Below, piece after piece: positions 2,354-40,978 of a stretch of 41,767 nt of DNA (positions are counted from its first letter, which is position 1; each line of letters begins with the position of its first letter). A program made the position numbers and the translations under genes. A model generated the notes under the pieces. It had not been told where the DNA came from and did not search any database. It was given only the letters and a program-made list of their open reading frames with translations. Source of the stretch: a virus (Duplodnaviria; Caudoviricetes); the IMG/VR virus record IMGVR_UViG_3300032303_000221, positions 1-41,767 of that record. One strand, given 5' to 3'.

Positions 2354-2828
2354 TCTGATCCTTCCAAGCTACCTTCAAGCCAAGCTTGAAAATGAAAATG
2401 TTTCACGTGAAACATCTGAGCCGGGGGCACTAGAAGTGGCCTTCGTTCCAGAAGCCGAAAGGGTCTTTGACCCAACCAAACTCCCAGATACAGCCCTTGC
2501 CCGTCTTCCCCAACCTACAGGCTGGCGACTTCTTGTGCTTCCTTATCGTGGAAATGCCAAGTCAAAGGGTGGCATTCTATACGCAGATCAAACTGTTGAG
2601 CAGAATAGCCTAGTTACGGTTGTCGCCTATGTGCTGGCTATCGGTCCCGACGCCTATTGCGATAAAGCCAAGTTCCCGAATGGAGCGTGGTGCAAGAAGG
2701 GTGACTGGGTAATCATCGGTCGCTACGCTGGGGCGCGTTTCAAGATTGAGGGTGGGGAAGTCCGCATCATCAACGATGACGAGATCATCGCAACAATCGC
2801 TGATCCCTCAGACGTTTCCAACGTCTAG
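2343..2828 (+). CDS. groES: phage GroES-like co-chaperonin with N-terminal extension
   Basis: LPQPTGWRLLV...KSKGGI...VLAIGPDAY...KKGDWVIIGRYAG...RIINDDEIIA matches the Cpn10 pattern; located in the head module. Confidence 0.88.
   Translation: MTSSLILPSYLQAKLENENVSRETSEPGALEVAFVPEAERVFDPTKLPDTALARLPQPTGWRLLVLPYRGNAKSKGGILYADQTVEQNSLVTVVAYVLAIGPDAYCDKAKFPNGAWCKKGDWVIIGRYAGARFKIEGGEVRIINDDEIIATIADPSDVSNV
2398..2415. promoter_or_regulatory. parS: parS-type centromere site (ParB-binding palindrome)
   Basis: ATGTTTCACGTGAAACAT is a perfect 18-bp palindrome; 2399-2414 is identical to the bacterial chromosomal parS consensus TGTTTCACGTGAAACA. Confidence 0.8.
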
Positions 2829-2850
2829 CAGCGCAGCAATGGAGATTGCT

Positions 2851-3720
2851 ATGTCAGATGTAAGTGATGTGGATGACGACGGTTCTGTCGAGGTCACAAT
2901 CGAGGAGATTGGATCCCCTGAGGCCAAGTCGGTAGAGAAGGTTGAAGTTCAAAGCGATCAAGAACTTCAGGATCATTCCGAGTCTGTCAGGAAGCGAATT
3001 GACAAGCTCACCTATCGCCTGAGGGAGGCCGAGCGCCGAGAACAAGCAGCTTTGGAGTTTGCCAAGGGTCTGAAAGGGCAGTTGCAAAACTATCAGGAGC
3101 GGACAAGCGTTCTTGACCGGACATTGGTCAACGAGTTTGACCACCGGCTGAAGACCCAAGACAAGATGATCCGCGAGGAGCTTCGACGGGCTATTGACGA
3201 GGGGAATGTCGAAGCGCAGATCACTGCACAGACAGCCCTTGCAAATTTAGCTGTGGAAAACGATAAGCTCCGCCAGTCAAAACTTCGCAGGGAACACGAG
3301 GATCGACAACGGGCGGCAGTCCAAGCTGAACCGCCGCAGCGCGTTGAGCAGCAAGCCCCGCGCCCGGATCCAAAGGCTCAATCTTGGGCAGAACGGAACG
3401 AGTGGTTTGGCAACGACAAGGCCATGACGGCTACGGCGTATGCAATTCACGCTGATCTTGTTGAGGTTGAGGGCTTTGATCCCACTTCTGATGACTACTA
3501 TCAGGAGCTTGATAGCCGTATCCGCAATGAGTTTCCCCATAAGTTCAAAGCCTCTCAGGGGAATACCCGCCCACAGGCTGCCGTGGCCTCCGCCCGGACG
3601 ACCGTGAAATCTAGCAACAACAAGATGAAACTGTCTGAAAGCCAGATCAGGGTTGCCAAGTCGCTAGGAGTTAGTTTAGAAGAGTATGCTAGACATGCTC
3701 GGATACAGCAGCAGGGTTAG
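2851..3720 (+). CDS. capsid scaffolding protein (putative)
   Basis: Acidic N-terminus, long coiled coil (SVRKRIDKLT), PDPKAQSWAERNEWFG, C-terminal LSESQIRVAKSLGVSLEEYARH; upstream of the capsid genes; GGAG RBS before ATG 2851. Confidence 0.75.
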   Translation: MSDVSDVDDDGSVEVTIEEIGSPEAKSVEKVEVQSDQELQDHSESVRKRIDKLTYRLREAERREQAALEFAKGLKGQLQNYQERTSVLDRTLVNEFDHRLKTQDKMIREELRRAIDEGNVEAQITAQTALANLAVENDKLRQSKLRREHEDRQRAAVQAEPPQRVEQQAPRPDPKAQSWAERNEWFGNDKAMTATAYAIHADLVEVEGFDPTSDDYYQELDSRIRNEFPHKFKASQGNTRPQAAVASARTTVKSSNNKMKLSESQIRVAKSLGVSLEEYARHARIQQQG

Positions 3721-3724
3721 TCAT

Positions 3725-4186
3725 ATGACTATTGACCGTAAGCCAAGATCAGAGACTGTCCGTGACAAGGAGTCACGCCCACTTGTGTGGAAACCACCGT
3801 CCACCTTGGACGCACCCCCGGCCCCCGAGGGTTATACGCACCGCTGGATCCGTATGGAAGCCAACGGCCATGACGACCGGAAGAACATTTCCGCACGTAC
3901 ACGCGAGGGCTTTGAGCTTGTTCGCGCCGAGGAATACCCTGATTGGGATCTCCCCACCATCAACGACGGCAAACATGCTGGCGTTATCGCAGTTGGCGGA
4001 TTGGTCCTAGCCCGTATTCCAAATGAACTCGTTCGCCAGAGAACTGAATACTTCCGGAAGCAGACGCAACAGCAGCTTCAGGCGGTGGACAATGATCTTA
4101 TGCGTGAGCAACACCCTTCAATGCCCATGATCCGTCCTGAGAGACAATCACGGGTAACTTTCGGTGGAAATCGTTCCTCCGAATAA
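3725..4186 (+). CDS. conserved head-module protein
   Basis: WKPPSTLDAPPAPEGYTHRWIR...REGFELVR...GGLVLARIP; between scaffold and capsid genes. Confidence 0.75.
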   Translation: MTIDRKPRSETVRDKESRPLVWKPPSTLDAPPAPEGYTHRWIRMEANGHDDRKNISARTREGFELVRAEEYPDWDLPTINDGKHAGVIAVGGLVLARIPNELVRQRTEYFRKQTQQQLQAVDNDLMREQHPSMPMIRPERQSRVTFGGNRSSE

Positions 4187-4203
4187 TCACAAGGATCTGA
4201 GCA

Positions 4204-4821
4204 ATGGCAAATATCAATGCCTCGTTCGGGCTTCGCCCGTATCGTATGCTTGGAAGCGGTGCGAATACCAACGGTGACGTTGTGTATTCCATCCAGACTG
4301 CGGCAACTGCTGGTTCGTCCAACGTGATCTATCAGGGCTCCCCTGTTATCCCGTTGTCTAACGGCATGATTGATATCGTCGGCGCTGCTGCCGGTGGTAC
4401 TGTCCCGCTTCTGGGTTCGTTTCTGGGTTGCAACTATATCGACCTGACGGGTAAGCCCAAGTGGTCTCCCTTCTGGCCCGGCACTTCTGCGGTGTATGCC
4501 AATTCTATCGCTACGGCGACTATTTCGGCGCACCCCGATCAGACGTTCCTGATTAACTGCGATGCGGCTGCTGCGGACACTCTTGTTCACAACAACGCGA
4601 ACTTTGCCACCGCCACCAGCGGTAGCAGCACCACGGGCTTGTCTTCGGGCAAGCTTGCCGTCTCGACGGCTGCAACGACTAACACGCTTAACCTTCGCAT
4701 TCTTGGCTTTGAGGACACTCCCGCCAATAGCGATGCTTCGGTTGCTGGTCGTTTGGCTATCGTCCTCCTCAACAACCACTTCTACCGTTACAATGCTAAC
4801 GGTACTGGTGCGGGCGTCTAA
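4204..4821 (+). CDS. capsid decoration / minor capsid protein (putative)
   Basis: MANINASFGLRP start, Ala/Thr/Gly-rich and beta-rich, directly upstream of the major capsid gene. Confidence 0.65.
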   Translation: MANINASFGLRPYRMLGSGANTNGDVVYSIQTAATAGSSNVIYQGSPVIPLSNGMIDIVGAAAGGTVPLLGSFLGCNYIDLTGKPKWSPFWPGTSAVYANSIATATISAHPDQTFLINCDAAAADTLVHNNANFATATSGSSTTGLSSGKLAVSTAATTNTLNLRILGFEDTPANSDASVAGRLAIVLLNNHFYRYNANGTGAGV

Positions 4822-4835
4822 AGGGAGTTTGAACA

Positions 4836-5744
4836 ATGGCAATCACTCGTTCACAACTCCTCAAGGAACTGGAGCCGGGTCTTAACGCCCTCTTCGGTAT
4901 GGAGTACGACCGCTACGACAACGAACACGCTGAAATCTTCGATACGGAGACTTCGGATCGTGCGTTTGAAGAAGAGGTTATGCTGTCTGGCTTCGGTCAG
5001 GCCCCTGTAAAGGGTGAAGGCGCGGCCATCGTGTACGACACGGCTGGTGAGGCTTTCACGGCTCGCTATACCCATAATACCATCGCGCTGGCTTTTGCGA
5101 TTACTGAGGAAGCCGTGGAGGATAACCTCTATGACAAACTCAGTGCCCGCTACACCCGTGCGCTGGCTCGCTCGATGTCCAACACCAAGCAAGTGACTGC
5201 GGCTGGTACGTTGAACAACGCTTTCTCGTCCAGCTACACGGGCGGCGACGGTGTTTCGCTCATCAACAGCGCGCATCCCACCACGGGTGGCGGAAACTGG
5301 TCGAACACTCTGGCGACTGCGGCGGATCTGAACGAGACTTCTCTCGAACAGGCTCTGATCGACATCGCCGGTTTCATCGACGAGCGTGGTCTGAAGATTG
5401 CTCTGCGTGGCATGAAGCTCATTATCCCCCCGAGCCTCCAGTTCACTGCCGAGCGTATCCTGAAGTCCGAGCAGCGCGTTTCGACGAGCGACAACGACAT
5501 TAACGCTTTGAAGTCTGGTGGCTACATGCCTCAGGGCTTCACCGTTAATCACTTCCTGACCGATACGGATGCTTGGTTCATCAAGACCGATGCTCCGAAC
5601 GGCATGAAGCACTTCGTTCGTTCGCCCATCAAAACGGCGATGGAAGGCGACTTTGAAACGGGCAACGTCCGTTACAAGGCCCGCGAGCGTTACAGCTTCG
5701 GGTGGTCGGATCCCCGTTCGATGTATGGTTCTCCCGGCGCTTAA
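4836..5744 (+). CDS. major capsid protein (Mu gpT-like, HK97 fold)
   Basis: MAITRSQLLKELEPGLNALFG...SDRAFEEEVMLSGFG...ITEEAVEDNLY...YKARERYSFGWSDPR; strong GGGAG RBS; followed by a terminator. Confidence 0.9.
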   Translation: MAITRSQLLKELEPGLNALFGMEYDRYDNEHAEIFDTETSDRAFEEEVMLSGFGQAPVKGEGAAIVYDTAGEAFTARYTHNTIALAFAITEEAVEDNLYDKLSARYTRALARSMSNTKQVTAAGTLNNAFSSSYTGGDGVSLINSAHPTTGGGNWSNTLATAADLNETSLEQALIDIAGFIDERGLKIALRGMKLIIPPSLQFTAERILKSEQRVSTSDNDINALKSGGYMPQGFTVNHFLTDTDAWFIKTDAPNGMKHFVRSPIKTAMEGDFETGNVRYKARERYSFGWSDPRSMYGSPGA

Positions 5745-6756: not shown

Positions 6757-7176
6757 ATGGCTATGACTCGCGGTGGAATTGGGCGTGAAGTTGCCGGTGC
6801 CCGCATGAAGAAGCGGGCTATGGGCGCTTCTATGCAGGGCAGGCGAATGGCCCCCGACATTATGACTGATATGCCTATGAAGGCTGCGGCTCCTGCAATG
6901 CCAATGGCTGCTGCGCCGATGGCTGCTGCGCCGATGGCTGCTGCGCCAACGGCAGCAATGAGAAAAGGCGGTAAGGTCGATTTCTCAAAGGTTGTTAGGA
7001 ATAAGAAGACTGGCGAACTTTCTGAGAAGCCCGGCATGAAGGGTGGCGGAATTGCCCAGAAGGGCAACAAGGATCCCTCCAAGACTCCTTCGTTCAAAAA
7101 GGGTGGCTCTGCCCCTAAGAAGGGTGGTCTCGCCATCATGATTGTGATGGGTAAAGGCAAGGGAAAGAAGAAATGA
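6757..7176 (+). CDS. small Lys/Gly/Met-rich basic protein with KGG repeats
   Basis: AAGGAG RBS; repeats MRKGGKV, MKGGGIA, FKKGGSA, KKGGLA. Confidence 0.75.
   Translation: MAMTRGGIGREVAGARMKKRAMGASMQGRRMAPDIMTDMPMKAAAPAMPMAAAPMAAAPMAAAPTAAMRKGGKVDFSKVVRNKKTGELSEKPGMKGGGIAQKGNKDPSKTPSFKKGGSAPKKGGLAIMIVMGKGKGKKK
6901..6960 (+). repeat. 15-bp coding tandem repeat (PMAAA) x about 4
   Basis: ccaatggctgctgcg ccgatggctgctgcg ccgatggctgctgcg ccaacggcagcaatg. Confidence 0.85.
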
Positions 7177-7334
7177 AAAAGCCCACCAAGGCTCAATCCA
7201 AGGTCAAGAAGGTGATGCACGAGTTTAAGACTGGTGCGTTGCATACAGGATCCAAGAAGGGTCCAGTGGTCAAGAACCGCAAGCAGGCTATCGCCATCGC
7301 CTTGTCCGAGGCGGGAAAATCTAAGAAGGGGTAA
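7173..7334 (+). CDS. small basic protein (DUF6496-like, 53 aa)
   Basis: Translated by hand: MKKPTKAQSKVKKVMHEFKTGALHTGSKKGPVVKNRKQAIAIALSEAGKSKKG; ATGA overlap with the previous gene; not in the ORF track. Confidence 0.82.
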   Translation: MKKPTKAQSKVKKVMHEFKTGALHTGSKKGPVVKNRKQAIAIALSEAGKSKKG

Positions 7335-7681: not shown

Positions 7682-7987
7682 ATGGTTAGTAAATCACCTA
7701 CAGGACTTATGAACATCGGCATGTGGGAAGGGTCCAAGGAGGACGTTTCTCAGGACAAGAAGCTTGCCAAAAAGCGTGGCATGACCATGAAGGAATGGGA
7801 AGCTTCTACCGACGATACCAAGCACGACACCCAGAAGTCCATGAAGGGTCTCCGTGGCGGCGGCATGGCTACCCGTGGTATGGGTGTTGCGCTTGCCGAG
7901 GGCGGCATGGCCTGCAAGGCTGGCGGCGGTATGGTGACGGCCAAGGGTCAGGGTATGGCTCGTAGTAAGTCTACCTCGGTGTGCTAA
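7682..7987 (+). CDS. small basic Gly-rich protein
   Basis: EGSKEDVSQDKKLAKKRGMT...LRGGGMATRGMG...AEGGMACKAGGGMV; packed between its neighbours. Confidence 0.72.
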   Translation: MVSKSPTGLMNIGMWEGSKEDVSQDKKLAKKRGMTMKEWEASTDDTKHDTQKSMKGLRGGGMATRGMGVALAEGGMACKAGGGMVTAKGQGMARSKSTSVC

Positions 7988-37058: not shown

Positions 37059-37430
37059 ATGTCCTTACTGATCGAAACACGGCGGGAACTTGAGAAAGTC
37101 CGCCACGAACTTGATGAACTGACCGCGAAACGGGATAGCGAAGCTGTTCCGTTCGCCATGCTGTTCCTCATACCTCGGCAGTTGGCGCACATTCTCTGCG
37201 CGGCCCACAGCAATCCTGTCGTCAGTCGTGATGAGATCATGGCGATCATCGCCCACACTGGACGCACGGGCTGGGGGCAGTCGATCAAGGTCGTTGATGT
37301 AGCGGTGTGGCGGCTTAACAAACGGCTGGAGGCCCACGGCCTACGGATCAAGAACCTTCGGGGGGTTGGGTTTTACCTGACAGATGAGGACAAGAGGACC
37401 ATCACAGCCCTCTTGTCCAGTAAGCTCTAG
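37059..37430 (+). CDS. OmpR/PhoB/CtrA-type winged-helix DNA-binding protein without receiver domain
   Basis: VSRDEIM...IKVVDVAVWRLNKRL...IKNLRGVGFYL matches the Trans_reg_C pattern; N-terminal coiled coil. Confidence 0.78.
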   Translation: MSLLIETRRELEKVRHELDELTAKRDSEAVPFAMLFLIPRQLAHILCAAHSNPVVSRDEIMAIIAHTGRTGWGQSIKVVDVAVWRLNKRLEAHGLRIKNLRGVGFYLTDEDKRTITALLSSKL

Positions 37431-38449: not shown

Positions 38450-38862
38450 TACCTTCTATCCTTCTTGCAGTAGGGTTTCTGGGTCAGGGTGTTTCTAATG
38501 TTTGAGGGTTCAAACTCCCGATACCGGCCCCCCGAATATCGAGCGCAGTCCAAGGCGTACCCATCACGGACCATGAGCATCGCGATGTCTTGCCCCTTGT
38601 CGTTGTGACAGACCGCAATCTGTCGGTTGTAGGATGTCTCCCCTGTCAAGTGACACTTCACATAGGAAGTGTTCTTGAGGATGGCGATCATGCCGTCCTT
38701 GGCCCTCGGACCATTTGTCTCGGACAGCTCCTCCGCATCAAGTCCGTAGATTCGAAGGGCGGTTCCATTCATCTTAATGGTATCCCCATCAACAGCCATA
38801 GGGAAACCAAGCAGAGATGCACAAAGGCCAAGCGCAGCAGCACTGAAAACATCGCAGCTCAT
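38449..38862 (-). CDS. thermonuclease (SNase-like) family protein
   Basis: VDGDTI, LRIYGLDAEEL, YNRQIAVC, DIAMLMVRDGYA, YSGGRY. Confidence 0.85.
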   Translation of the reverse strand: MSCDVFSAAALGLCASLLGFPMAVDGDTIKMNGTALRIYGLDAEELSETNGPRAKDGMIAILKNTSYVKCHLTGETSYNRQIAVCHNDKGQDIAMLMVRDGYALDCARYSGGRYREFEPSNIRNTLTQKPYCKKDRR

Positions 38863-39314
38863 TTCTTGGCCCTCGGCCTACGGACAGGCTTCTCAACAAC
38901 AGGAACCGGCTTTGGTTTATTCTTTGACCCAAGCTTGCGGCCACGCTTTACCGGGGCAGGCGGATGGCACATGATCTCAAGTTTGTGCCTTGCGTAGTCC
39001 TCGATGGACATTCCAAGTTTCTTCGCAACAGCCACCTCGTTTGCTGTCAGGTGAAGCAAACCCCCTTTCAACCGACGCTCCAGATACTCAATCCGCATCC
39101 GCAAATCCACGAGATCCTTAAATTTATCGTTAAAAAACATCGCGTTCTTGTCGATGCCGTCGCTGATAATGTTCATTCTTTCGCGGGCTGAATGCTCAAT
39201 CCTAGCAAGTTCCTCAAAGGTCTTGTTACGGGTGGCTGTAAACCGAACATCAAGTTCATGTACCGCTGGATCAGCGAACAAACCACGGATTGTCTCTTTC
39301 AATTTCTCGAACAT
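38859..39314 (-). CDS. coiled-coil protein with scaffold-like motif and AT-hook-like basic tail
   Basis: AAGGAG RBS before ATG 39314; LTANEVAVAKKLGMSIEDYARH; KRGRKLGSKNKPKP. Confidence 0.72.
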   Translation of the reverse strand: MFEKLKETIRGLFADPAVHELDVRFTATRNKTFEELARIEHSARERMNIISDGIDKNAMFFNDKFKDLVDLRMRIEYLERRLKGGLLHLTANEVAVAKKLGMSIEDYARHKLEIMCHPPAPVKRGRKLGSKNKPKPVPVVEKPVRRPRAKK

Positions 39315-39325
39315 GTTCTTTCTCC

Positions 39326-39535
39326 TTAGACCCACATACGGGTTCGGCTGACGAGGGTTTCGTCCTTGTAGATATGCAACTCAGCGTTCGCCTGCTCCGC
39401 AGGAATAATCCTATGTCGCGGAACAAGGTAAACCTGACCCAACGGAAGGGTCACAAGCCGTGAGTCAATCGCTTGGTTGACAGGTTTGTGGCGAATCCTA
39501 TCCTTCTTATCTCGTGGGTGTATCACTCTCACCAT
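39326..39535 (-). CDS. hypothetical protein
   Basis: 69 aa, AAGGAG upstream, fills the gap in a co-directional cluster. Confidence 0.55.
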   Translation of the reverse strand: MVRVIHPRDKKDRIRHKPVNQAIDSRLVTLPLGQVYLVPRHRIIPAEQANAELHIYKDETLVSRTRMWV

Positions 39536-39911
39536 CTTCTTTCTCCTTCGCCATTTCTCGGCAGAGAACAGGAAACATACCCTTCGTGGATGCTCGGTTG
39601 TCGTTCAACGTCCCCAACAATTCGCCGTCGAGAAGTATTGCGCAACAGGCCATCACATGACCAAGGTGGTGAACCCCGCTTTCTGGATCCATCGTCTCAC
39701 CATCGTACCAAGAAATCAAGTGCCTCATCGCTGCATCATAATAAATAGATGCACTTATATAATTCTCACGCCAGTTCATCAGACCATACTTGTCCCGACC
39801 ATTCATCATGGCCTTTGACAAATGGAGCAACGAGATAGGTGGAACACAAGCCATCGACGGCTTACGCATACCAAGCACAGACTTCGGATTATTGTCCGGT
39901 GGGGTTTCCAT
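39507..39911 (-). CDS. dATP/dGTP diphosphohydrolase N-terminal domain protein (DUF5664-like)
   Basis: NPK...KP...VPP...GRDKYGLMNWRE...YYDAAMRHL..WYDGE..DPESGVHHLGHVMACCAILLD...DNR. Confidence 0.85.
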   Translation of the reverse strand: METPPDNNPKSVLGMRKPSMACVPPISLLHLSKAMMNGRDKYGLMNWRENYISASIYYDAAMRHLISWYDGETMDPESGVHHLGHVMACCAILLDGELLGTLNDNRASTKGMFPVLCREMAKEKEDGESDTPTR

Positions 39912-40104
39912 CCTCAGGCCCTTTTGGTTTGCGATAAAACATAACGGCCCGATGCTCTTTGCAATAGTTGTGCTTCGGGTGATCTAACGGACTCGCGCAA
40001 TACAAACGAAAGCCGCTTTTCGAACGCATATCCAAAGGGTAGTGACACTCCAAAAACCCAATATTCATAAGGGTTTTTGATCCCTCTGGTCTGTCTTTAA
40101 GCAT
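39889..40104 (-). CDS. GcrA-like C-terminal domain protein
   Basis: KTLMNI...ECHYPLD...YCASP...NYCKEHRAVMF resembles the GcrA C-terminus (C-x-W-P...FCG...PYC-x-x-H); start at 40104 overlaps the end of the upstream gene. Confidence 0.6.
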   Translation of the reverse strand: MLKDRPEGSKTLMNIGFLECHYPLDMRSKSGFRLYCASPLDHPKHNYCKEHRAVMFYRKPKGPEDGNPTGQ

Positions 40105-40459
40105 GTCCAACACTCGCATCGTCAGGCGAGGCGAGATCAAGTTTAGTTGCATACCAACCATGTTCTATCGCCTTCATCACTATAGTTTTGTCTAAGTTCA
40201 GAAGGTGACAGGTTGTGCAGAGCTGTTCAATCAAACAACATACCGTCATCTGCGCAACTAAACTGCGGACCTTTGTATCTTTGCCCCACTCCCACGGAAC
40301 ATCGCCCTCAAGCGCACCAACTATCTCAACGAGCGTCGATCTCATGACGCCTGACAAAATGGTGTGGACCCACCCGCCATCCGGAATGTTGTCTGGTTTG
40401 TCTTGGATAAAACTTATGTCCATACGGACCTCGGCCACGGGGATCTTGTCGTTAGTCAT
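40097..40459 (-). CDS. hypothetical protein
   Basis: 120 aa, AAGGA RBS, co-directional cluster. Confidence 0.65.
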   Translation of the reverse strand: MTNDKIPVAEVRMDISFIQDKPDNIPDGGWVHTILSGVMRSTLVEIVGALEGDVPWEWGKDTKVRSLVAQMTVCCLIEQLCTTCHLLNLDKTIVMKAIEHGWYATKLDLASPDDASVGHA

Positions 40460-40580
40460 AGAAGTTGTCCTTTATCATTTCAATTACGAGAAGAGAGAAG
40501 AACAAAACCATGAAAGCGCAAAACGCTAGTGACACCGCAGTGGCACAAAAAAGCATGAGCGTTATCAGCGTGTCATTCAT
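40452..40580 (-). CDS. small membrane peptide (42 aa)
   Basis: Translated by hand: MNDTLITLMLFCATAVSLAFCAFMVLFFSLLVIEMIKDNFYD; ATGA overlap upstream; not in the ORF track. Confidence 0.6.
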   Translation of the reverse strand: MNDTLITLMLFCATAVSLAFCAFMVLFFSLLVIEMIKDNFYD

Positions 40581-40978
40581 TTTTTTATTCCTTTCATTAG
40601 TTCCATCAGTTTCTTTTTGTTGTCGTCGTCTATGGCGTAGCCAACACCTCGCACCACGTTGATTGTGATGCCGTGCGGCCTCAGTTTGTTACGCATCTTC
40701 CACACTGCCACCTTGGTTCTCAAAGTTTGGTGCATTTCCCCGCCGTAACGATCATACTTCCCATGCTCCTCGGTGATATTGTCGAGATAAGCAAAGGTGG
40801 CGACATCGCGTTTGCATATTCCTGTCAAAAGTCCTGCTTGTTGTTTTGACAGAAACTTTAAGAATCCAATATCAATTTGCGCCAGTTCCTCACGAAGTTG
40901 GCGGATTTCCTCCTTCAGTCTTTCAATCTCAGCGTTCTGATCGCTGAGAAGTTTTTGGACGCGGGAGGCTTCACTCAT
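40577..40978 (-). CDS. second OmpR/CtrA-type winged-helix protein without receiver domain
   Basis: Coiled coil (EIERLKEEIRQLREELA) then TKVAVWKMRNKLRPHGITINVVRGVGYAI; paralogous to 37059-37430. Confidence 0.75.
   Translation of the reverse strand: MSEASRVQKLLSDQNAEIERLKEEIRQLREELAQIDIGFLKFLSKQQAGLLTGICKRDVATFAYLDNITEEHGKYDRYGGEMHQTLRTKVAVWKMRNKLRPHGITINVVRGVGYAIDDDNKKKLMELMKGIKK

Follow-up and report, generated by a model that had tools for sequence, protein, structure and literature searches.

A piece resembling a Mu-type scaffold tail is inserted in an accessory protein of an HTVC023P-type phage

RESULTS

Layout of the accessory gene and its locus

The stretch of DNA that was analyzed as a whole (the window, 41,767 nt) comes from an uncultured HTVC023P-type phage. 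Its accessory gene, located at 38859 to 39314 on the minus strand within a series of small minus-strand genes, encodes a protein of 151 amino acids (P0001) that belongs to a family termed here family I. A Shine-Dalgarno-like AAGGAG (39322 to 39327, minus strand) is found 7 nt upstream of the ATG, and the stop codon overlaps the start of the next gene. The gene is placed among the replication-side accessory genes, on the strand opposite to the head genes and about 33 kb away from them, whereas a scaffold gene would be expected close to the capsid gene, within the head operon. This neighborhood is common to the window and 10 of 10 family I loci among the matches listed. A scan for promoters and terminators gave chance-level results, and the sequencing runs listed as carrying the sequence include no RNA data set.

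Two similar proteins encoded in the same part of the window, at 37059 to 37430 (plus strand) and 40577 to 40975 (minus strand), combine a coiled coil with an OmpR-like winged helix (PF00486, below the cut-off), and a weak GcrA-like match lies at 39889 to 40161. In locus L032, the DNA polymerase frame (2798 to 5545, minus strand) comprises 916 amino acids versus about 630 in the window and in locus L001, which suggests an intein or another insertion; about 0.9 kb of extra DNA adjoins this frame.

The accessory protein consists of three parts. Residues 1 to 82 (39069 to 39314, minus strand), which are common to P0001 and its orthologue P0044, contain an amphipathic helix followed by predicted long helices. 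Residues 88 to 118 (38961 to 39053, minus strand) form a 31-residue insert with a helix-loop-helix resembling a scaffold tail (core, 39050 to 38985; here called the motif), and residues 121 to 151 (38862 to 38954, minus strand) form a basic, proline-rich tail that is predicted to be disordered and has 13 Lys or Arg residues and one Glu. The first-pass annotation had placed a coiled coil ahead of the motif; long helices are indeed predicted there and are likely a coiled coil, but the model is of low confidence (mean pLDDT of 59), and its best-predicted part is the motif itself, with helices at residues 91 to 100 and 104 to 116 and a pLDDT of about 75. An ESM Atlas search returned no usable match for P0001 or for P0150, a member of a second family described below. 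Matches to NCBIfam AcrID1 (E value of 0.019) and Pfam RNase III (E value of 0.11) were dismissed, being below the cut-offs of those models.

The tail holds KRGRKLGSKNKPKP at 38948 to 38907, a stretch likened earlier to AT-hooks. It is basic as described, and the tail string of the P0001 family fits the consensus of the plant AHL type I AT-hook, an RGR core followed by GSKNKPKP (excerpt of PMC7896510). However, RGRP is present in just 12 of 41 family I members (RGRK in 24; P0001 itself has RGRK), the Pfam AT-hook models do not match P0001, and the tail string recurs in many unrelated proteins. The tail is AT-hook-like, then, and not a proven AT-hook; because of its charge and its motif, it likely binds DNA.

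A likely scaffold precedes the capsid gene

The ORF at 2851 to 3720 (plus strand, 289 amino acids) matches phrog_28737 over its length (E value of 4e-70) and is a homologue of gp37 of HTVC023P. Homologues occur in 14 of 50,697 GenBank phage records, HTVC023P-type phages foremost, and the gene order in those phages is GroES, the homologue, two small genes, and capsid. In the predicted model (mean pLDDT of 77), an acidic disordered start is followed by long helices, a small helical domain, a disordered linker, and a terminal helix-loop-helix (3631 to 3696, plus strand); this terminal part corresponds to the accessory motif and is the end that is conserved across the family. It also resembles the tail of the protein annotated in GenBank as Mu scaffolding protein Z (hhalign E value of 5e-5, weak alone), the similarity being confined to the tail. 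The presumed binding partner is the major capsid protein (4836 to 5744, plus strand), which matches PF25209 and PF10124 above their cut-offs as well as phrog_371, and which passes the cut-off of the Mu gpT-like Pfam model. Fold searches with the model of the ORF returned only uncharacterized phage proteins from BFVD at E values up to 0.001 and nothing from the PDB at that level.

Because of its position before the capsid gene, its scaffold-like predicted fold, and its Mu gpZ-like tail, the ORF is likely a scaffold, as had been assumed at the outset. The members of phrog_28737 in GenBank are annotated as hypothetical, or as "kinesin-like" in two records, and the description of the HTVC023P group, in the excerpt available, does not call the gp37 homologue a scaffold (bioRxiv 10.1101/2019.12.14.876532). 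A by-product of the analysis is thus a likely function for this unnamed family (HTVC023P gp37) as the head scaffold of HTVC023P-type phages. The cultured members of this type are without the accessory gene.

The structural module also holds small Lys-rich ORFs (1705 to 2126, 6757 to 7334, and 7682 to 7987), whose products are candidate internal proteins that would condense DNA. L184, a 54-kb contig binned into a Paceibacterota MAG but probably belonging to a phage, holds a related head module with GroES, scaffold, and capsid genes.

The motif is homologous to Mu-type scaffold tails

Residues 89 to 110 of P0001 (39050 to 38985) align to residues 261 to 282 of the likely scaffold (3631 to 3696) without gaps and with 12 of 22 positions identical, just as first reported, and BLASTP gives the pair an E value of 2e-6. 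The BLOSUM score of this match is 70; the runner-up among the 786 ORFs of the window scores 26, and the maximum in a control in which all 786 were shuffled (200 rounds) was 40. PHROG 28737 matches both proteins, P0001 only at profile positions 311 to 334 of 341, and it is matched by nine of nine accessory motif copies. Eight of the nine also match phrog_328, the family of Mu scaffolding protein Z and the C terminus of Mu-like protease I (PF10123; GenBank AF083977), at positions 312 to 335 of 339 (best E value of 0.027). The Mu gpZ tail itself aligns to the accessory copies with an hhalign E value of 3.6e-4 and 9 of 24 residues identical. Each of these matches to the Mu-type tail is weak on its own. 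A helix-loop-helix is predicted in both the P0001 motif and the scaffold tail, with pLDDT values of about 75 and 85, respectively.

The first-pass annotation had drawn on P22-like phages. Since hhalign found no tail match to residues 271 to 300 of P22 gp8, and the 17 PDB matches to the motif at E values up to 10 include no P22 chain, P22 serves as an analogy only, and the homology is to the Mu-type scaffold tail. When the PDB was searched by sequence with the motif, the capsid alignment, and Mu gpZ, no structure of a capsid or scaffold was retrieved. The predicted complex of capsid protein (A3) and motif (A5), from a run without folded controls, scored 0.19 and 0.07 and carries no weight either way. 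In P0001, the motif is internal, with 41 residues following residue 110 (39 to 45 residues C-terminal to the motif family-wide), whereas scaffold tails are terminal. As a whole protein, the accessory protein is not a scaffold.

The core of the motif, a helix-Gly-x-Ser-x-Glu-Glu linker, is present in designed repeat proteins too. A generic DNA-binding helix-turn-helix with a minor-groove arm, scaffold-like by convergence, would be in keeping with the weak HTH_3 matches of 3 of 20 scaffold tails, the SoxR match of one family II carrier (see below), and the adjoining basic hook. We nevertheless regard this as highly improbable: no HTH family matches P0001 at E values up to 1, the motif has two helices only and misses the three-helix core, and its second helix starts with acidic residues. 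In addition, proteins matching through the motif only are scaffolds in 21 of 21 viral loci, as are 31 of 31 listed short proteins with the motif (best 120 of 2,399 protein matches). The refuting outcome named at the outset, a generic helix-turn-helix fragment in many unrelated proteins, was not seen among the matches listed.

Family I carries the motif as a conserved insert

The 68 candidates yielded 40 family I clusters, each of them with the motif, and one further cluster brings the total to 41. Searched against 1.84 billion representatives, the accessory protein had 12 matches, namely two family members, one truncated N-terminal piece, seven proteins with the basic repeat only, one unrelated repeat protein, and P0044. 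The last aligns to P0001 over the N-terminal helices and the tail, minus exactly residues 88 to 118 (hhalign probability of 99), and the motif is missing in 14 of 14 members of the orthologous P0044 cluster. On this alignment, the motif is a clean 31-residue insert bounded by a motif-less orthologue. A single gain after the split from P0044 would be the simplest reading, with loss in P0044 as the alternative; no DNA context of the motif-less P0044 was found, and its synteny is suggested only by a similar upstream in-frame extension. Such genes are also shuffled: P0042 (105 amino acids) joins the N terminus of a motif-less coiled-coil family (without the motif in 48 of 48 listed members) to the motif and tail, the junction being a shared 8-residue stretch.

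With a dN/dS of 0.17 at a dS of 0.77 (9 distinct genes of 11), the motif is under purifying selection; the constraint is not stronger there than elsewhere in the protein, as the other segments in the P0001 family have values of 0.12 to 0.28. Five columns are invariant in 20 scaffold tails (L89, A97, E105, Y107, and A108), and in 40 family I members four of them are kept in 40/40 and A97 in 38/40. Sixteen of the 24 minor variants in the family I motif are seen in scaffolds as well, while column conservation in the two groups is weakly correlated (rho of 0.37, P of 0.09). At the surface, K98, E105, and K111 do not vary among the 40 members.

The motif is an optional cassette in an unrelated early-gene family

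Another early-gene family (family II), unrelated to family I, came to light through its basic tail, so the pairing of motif and basic tail is partly an ascertainment effect. Its gene has a fixed place among the recombination and replication genes of related phages of ~65 kb, and apart from the motif, the basic tail is all that it shares with family I. Among 22 distinct proteins, 9 have the motif, which occupies at least two positions and comes in about three flavors of sequence; it stands before the tail, after the tail, or beside a degenerate tail, and usually beside an RGRPxGSKNK tail. The end of phrog_28737 is the first or second PHROG match for three of four carriers tested; the diverged copy in P0150 gave no phrog_28737 match. 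P0150, with the cassette, and L116, without it, are 89% identical. A tree of the shared part implies five gains or losses, at least two of them forced by strong branches, with otherwise weak support, and no bootstrap tree permits a single gain or loss. The invariant Tyr is lost in five copies. The L119 record holds both a motif copy and a scaffold, and the flavor of the copy differs from that of its own scaffold tail; in two near-complete records with motif-less family II members, the scaffold is the sole motif holder.

In the family II gene of L146 (3010 to 3135), a short imperfect direct repeat lies on either side of the cassette and may offer a route for its loss or gain. The carrier at 2983 to 3354 of L179 has a degenerate basic hook, and the SoxR model matches it over motif and coil (E value of 8e-5).

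Scans of species genomes confirmed 0 of 192 candidates as accessory carriers, and a further scan yielded one scaffold. DNA patterns for motif plus tail gave no match, then one and one, both known carriers; the recall of these patterns is incomplete because L001, which fits, was missed, and as the protein motif matches were listed to the best 120 of 2,399, further carriers may exist. No other virion piece was found in the family I segments or family II inserts (8,466 ORFs searched). Taken together, the motif is a real inserted, optional, and recurrent cassette that is both conserved and mobile.

These data bear on a rival explanation, in which recombination in a mosaic region captured a stable hairpin that was then kept as a folded spacer or oligomerization aid, without capsid contact. 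Genes shuffle here, as at the P0042 junction; selection on the motif equals that on its flanks; the motif is dispensable in 14 of 14 P0044-cluster and 13 of 22 family II proteins; and the short direct repeats around the L146 cassette would ease loss. On the other hand, the same piece recurs, at different places in the protein, in two families that are unrelated, no other virion piece turned up among the 8,466 ORFs, and three surface residues (K98, E105, and K111) are kept in 40/40 members. We consider such a purely structural role possible but doubtful.

The copy is old and closer to the scaffold tails of other clades

Only 7 of 22 third codon positions are identical between the accessory motif and the phage's own scaffold, so the copy is old, and a recent duplication from that scaffold was ruled out. 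Of 27 distinct accessory variants, not one has its nearest match among the scaffold tails of the phage's own clade, a result inflated by unequal clade sampling (47 distinct tails compared, 2 of the own clade). The first half of the motif is nearest to type A scaffold tails, and 22 of 27 variants have a second half that is nearest to the distant type B tails; the mean identity of the variants to the own tail is 11.1/22, in the lower part of a range of 8.8 to 14.1. The description of the motif as a copy of the scaffold therefore needs amending: it is homologous, old, and conserved, but because it is closer to the tails of other clades, it is not supported as a copy of the scaffold of this phage.

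This pattern would suit a role in interference, in which a multivalent copy made early would, in the manner of CpmB of SaPI1, occupy the sites where scaffold binds the coat protein of related phages in the same cell, so that their heads assemble faultily or more slowly. The early location, the likeness to the scaffolds of other clades, the invariant K111 (present in type A2 and B scaffolds, Ala in that of the phage itself), and the unlike flavor of the L119 copy all fit. Self-poisoning would be a risk, however, because the phage's own scaffold shares all of the invariant residues; the copy in L123 is closest to the type C tails of its own phage group, and the apparent closeness to others carries the sampling inflation noted above. 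Interference is accordingly judged unlikely.

DISCUSSION

Our leading reading, held tentatively, is that the motif serves as a docking tag for the capsid and brings a DNA-binding protein into heads. In this view, an early-region protein that is likely oligomeric and likely binds DNA would have gained a 31-residue piece homologous to Mu-type scaffold tails. By docking inside the assembling capsid at the site where scaffold binds, the piece would let the protein enter procapsids with the scaffold and ride into the head, where the basic tail would keep it on the DNA. Several steps are implied. By analogy to P22 and 80alpha, the scaffold tail would be the coat-binding element: in P22, a C-terminal helix-turn-helix anchors scaffold to coat (excerpt of PMC9965877), and cargo fused to truncated scaffold loads into capsids (excerpt of PMC9962691), while in 80alpha and SaPI1 both tails bind the same site and are swappable (excerpt of PMC5644958). 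We infer that the accessory copy retains coat-binding activity because it keeps the scaffold-invariant residues. The modeled helices of P0001 may oligomerize and provide avidity, and the protein would still have to be present at head assembly. Of the four functions put forward in the first-pass annotation, none is singled out by the analysis.

Several observations speak against this docking role. Its timing is awkward, as the gene is one of the replication-side accessory genes, on the opposite strand and far from the head genes; the motif is internal, and its variants are not closest to the scaffold tails of the phage's own clade. Furthermore, its constraint only equals that of the rest, the Tyr is lost in five family II copies, the linker is found in designed repeat proteins, and the SoxR model matches one carrier. 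A wider form of the docking reading, which we hold with somewhat less confidence, is that in HTVC023P-type and related phages the scaffold tail acts as a mobile address label for the capsid. Unrelated early DNA-binding proteins would repeatedly gain and drop it, thereby reaching the inside of heads, either those of their own phage, in which they would be packaged along with the DNA, or those of related phages in a co-infection, which they would jam.

The early position, optional presence, and family-consensus-like sequence would also suit a decoy that soaks up a host defense sensor, protease, or chaperone recognizing scaffold tails before the real scaffold appears, and capsid proteins and prohead proteases are known triggers of defense (excerpt of PMC12409349). 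Yet no scaffold-sensing system was found in the literature covered, the motif-less relatives have no capsid piece in the same slot, and the basic tail would be left unexplained; a decoy thus seems rather improbable.

Under the docking reading, the accessory protein would work like CpmB or an engineered scaffold fusion. CpmB of SaPI1 is the closest known case, a small non-scaffold protein that carries the scaffold's C-terminal motif behind a dimerization region and binds the same coat site (excerpt of PMC5644958). The accessory protein is not a CpmB, however. CpmB is satellite encoded, ends in the motif, and changes capsid size (same excerpt), whereas the accessory gene sits in a phage with its own capsid and scaffold genes, and its motif is internal, optional, derived from another scaffold family, and followed by a basic tail; its counterpart of the dimerization region is suggested by low-confidence helices alone. 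In P22 gp8, the terminal helix-loop-helix likewise docks on the coat, and a fused tail suffices for cargo loading (excerpts of PMC9965877 and PMC9962691), but there is no detectable sequence homology to the motif, and the cargo fusions are engineered, not natural. Mu scaffolding protein Z has the same tail motif as the accessory copy; there it is terminal and lies in the head operon, on a protein whose start is inside the protease gene, and the likeness to the accessory protein is weak and confined to the tail. The direct source family of the motif is phrog_28737 (HTVC023P gp37), with which the accessory protein shares the last ~25 residues only, the rest being unrelated.

Consistent with the earlier statement that this architecture is undescribed, the literature covered (mainly the main texts of open-access papers) contained no account of an early phage protein with an inserted scaffold tail. 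New here are the clean insert, the purifying selection on it, its distance from the phage's own scaffold, and its presence as an optional cassette in a second family. Should the tag prove inert, it would be a clear example of gene-fragment shuffling, of little further interest. Matched gene pairs with and without this natural tag of 25 to 30 residues exist (P0001 versus P0044, P0150 versus L116) and make its function directly testable. The HTVC023P-type group is among the most abundant aquatic phages and has cultured members (excerpt of bioRxiv 10.1101/2019.12.14.876532), and the finding touches two open questions, namely, how heads of the HK97 type take up nonstructural proteins and how a lytic phage fights its relatives in a co-infection.
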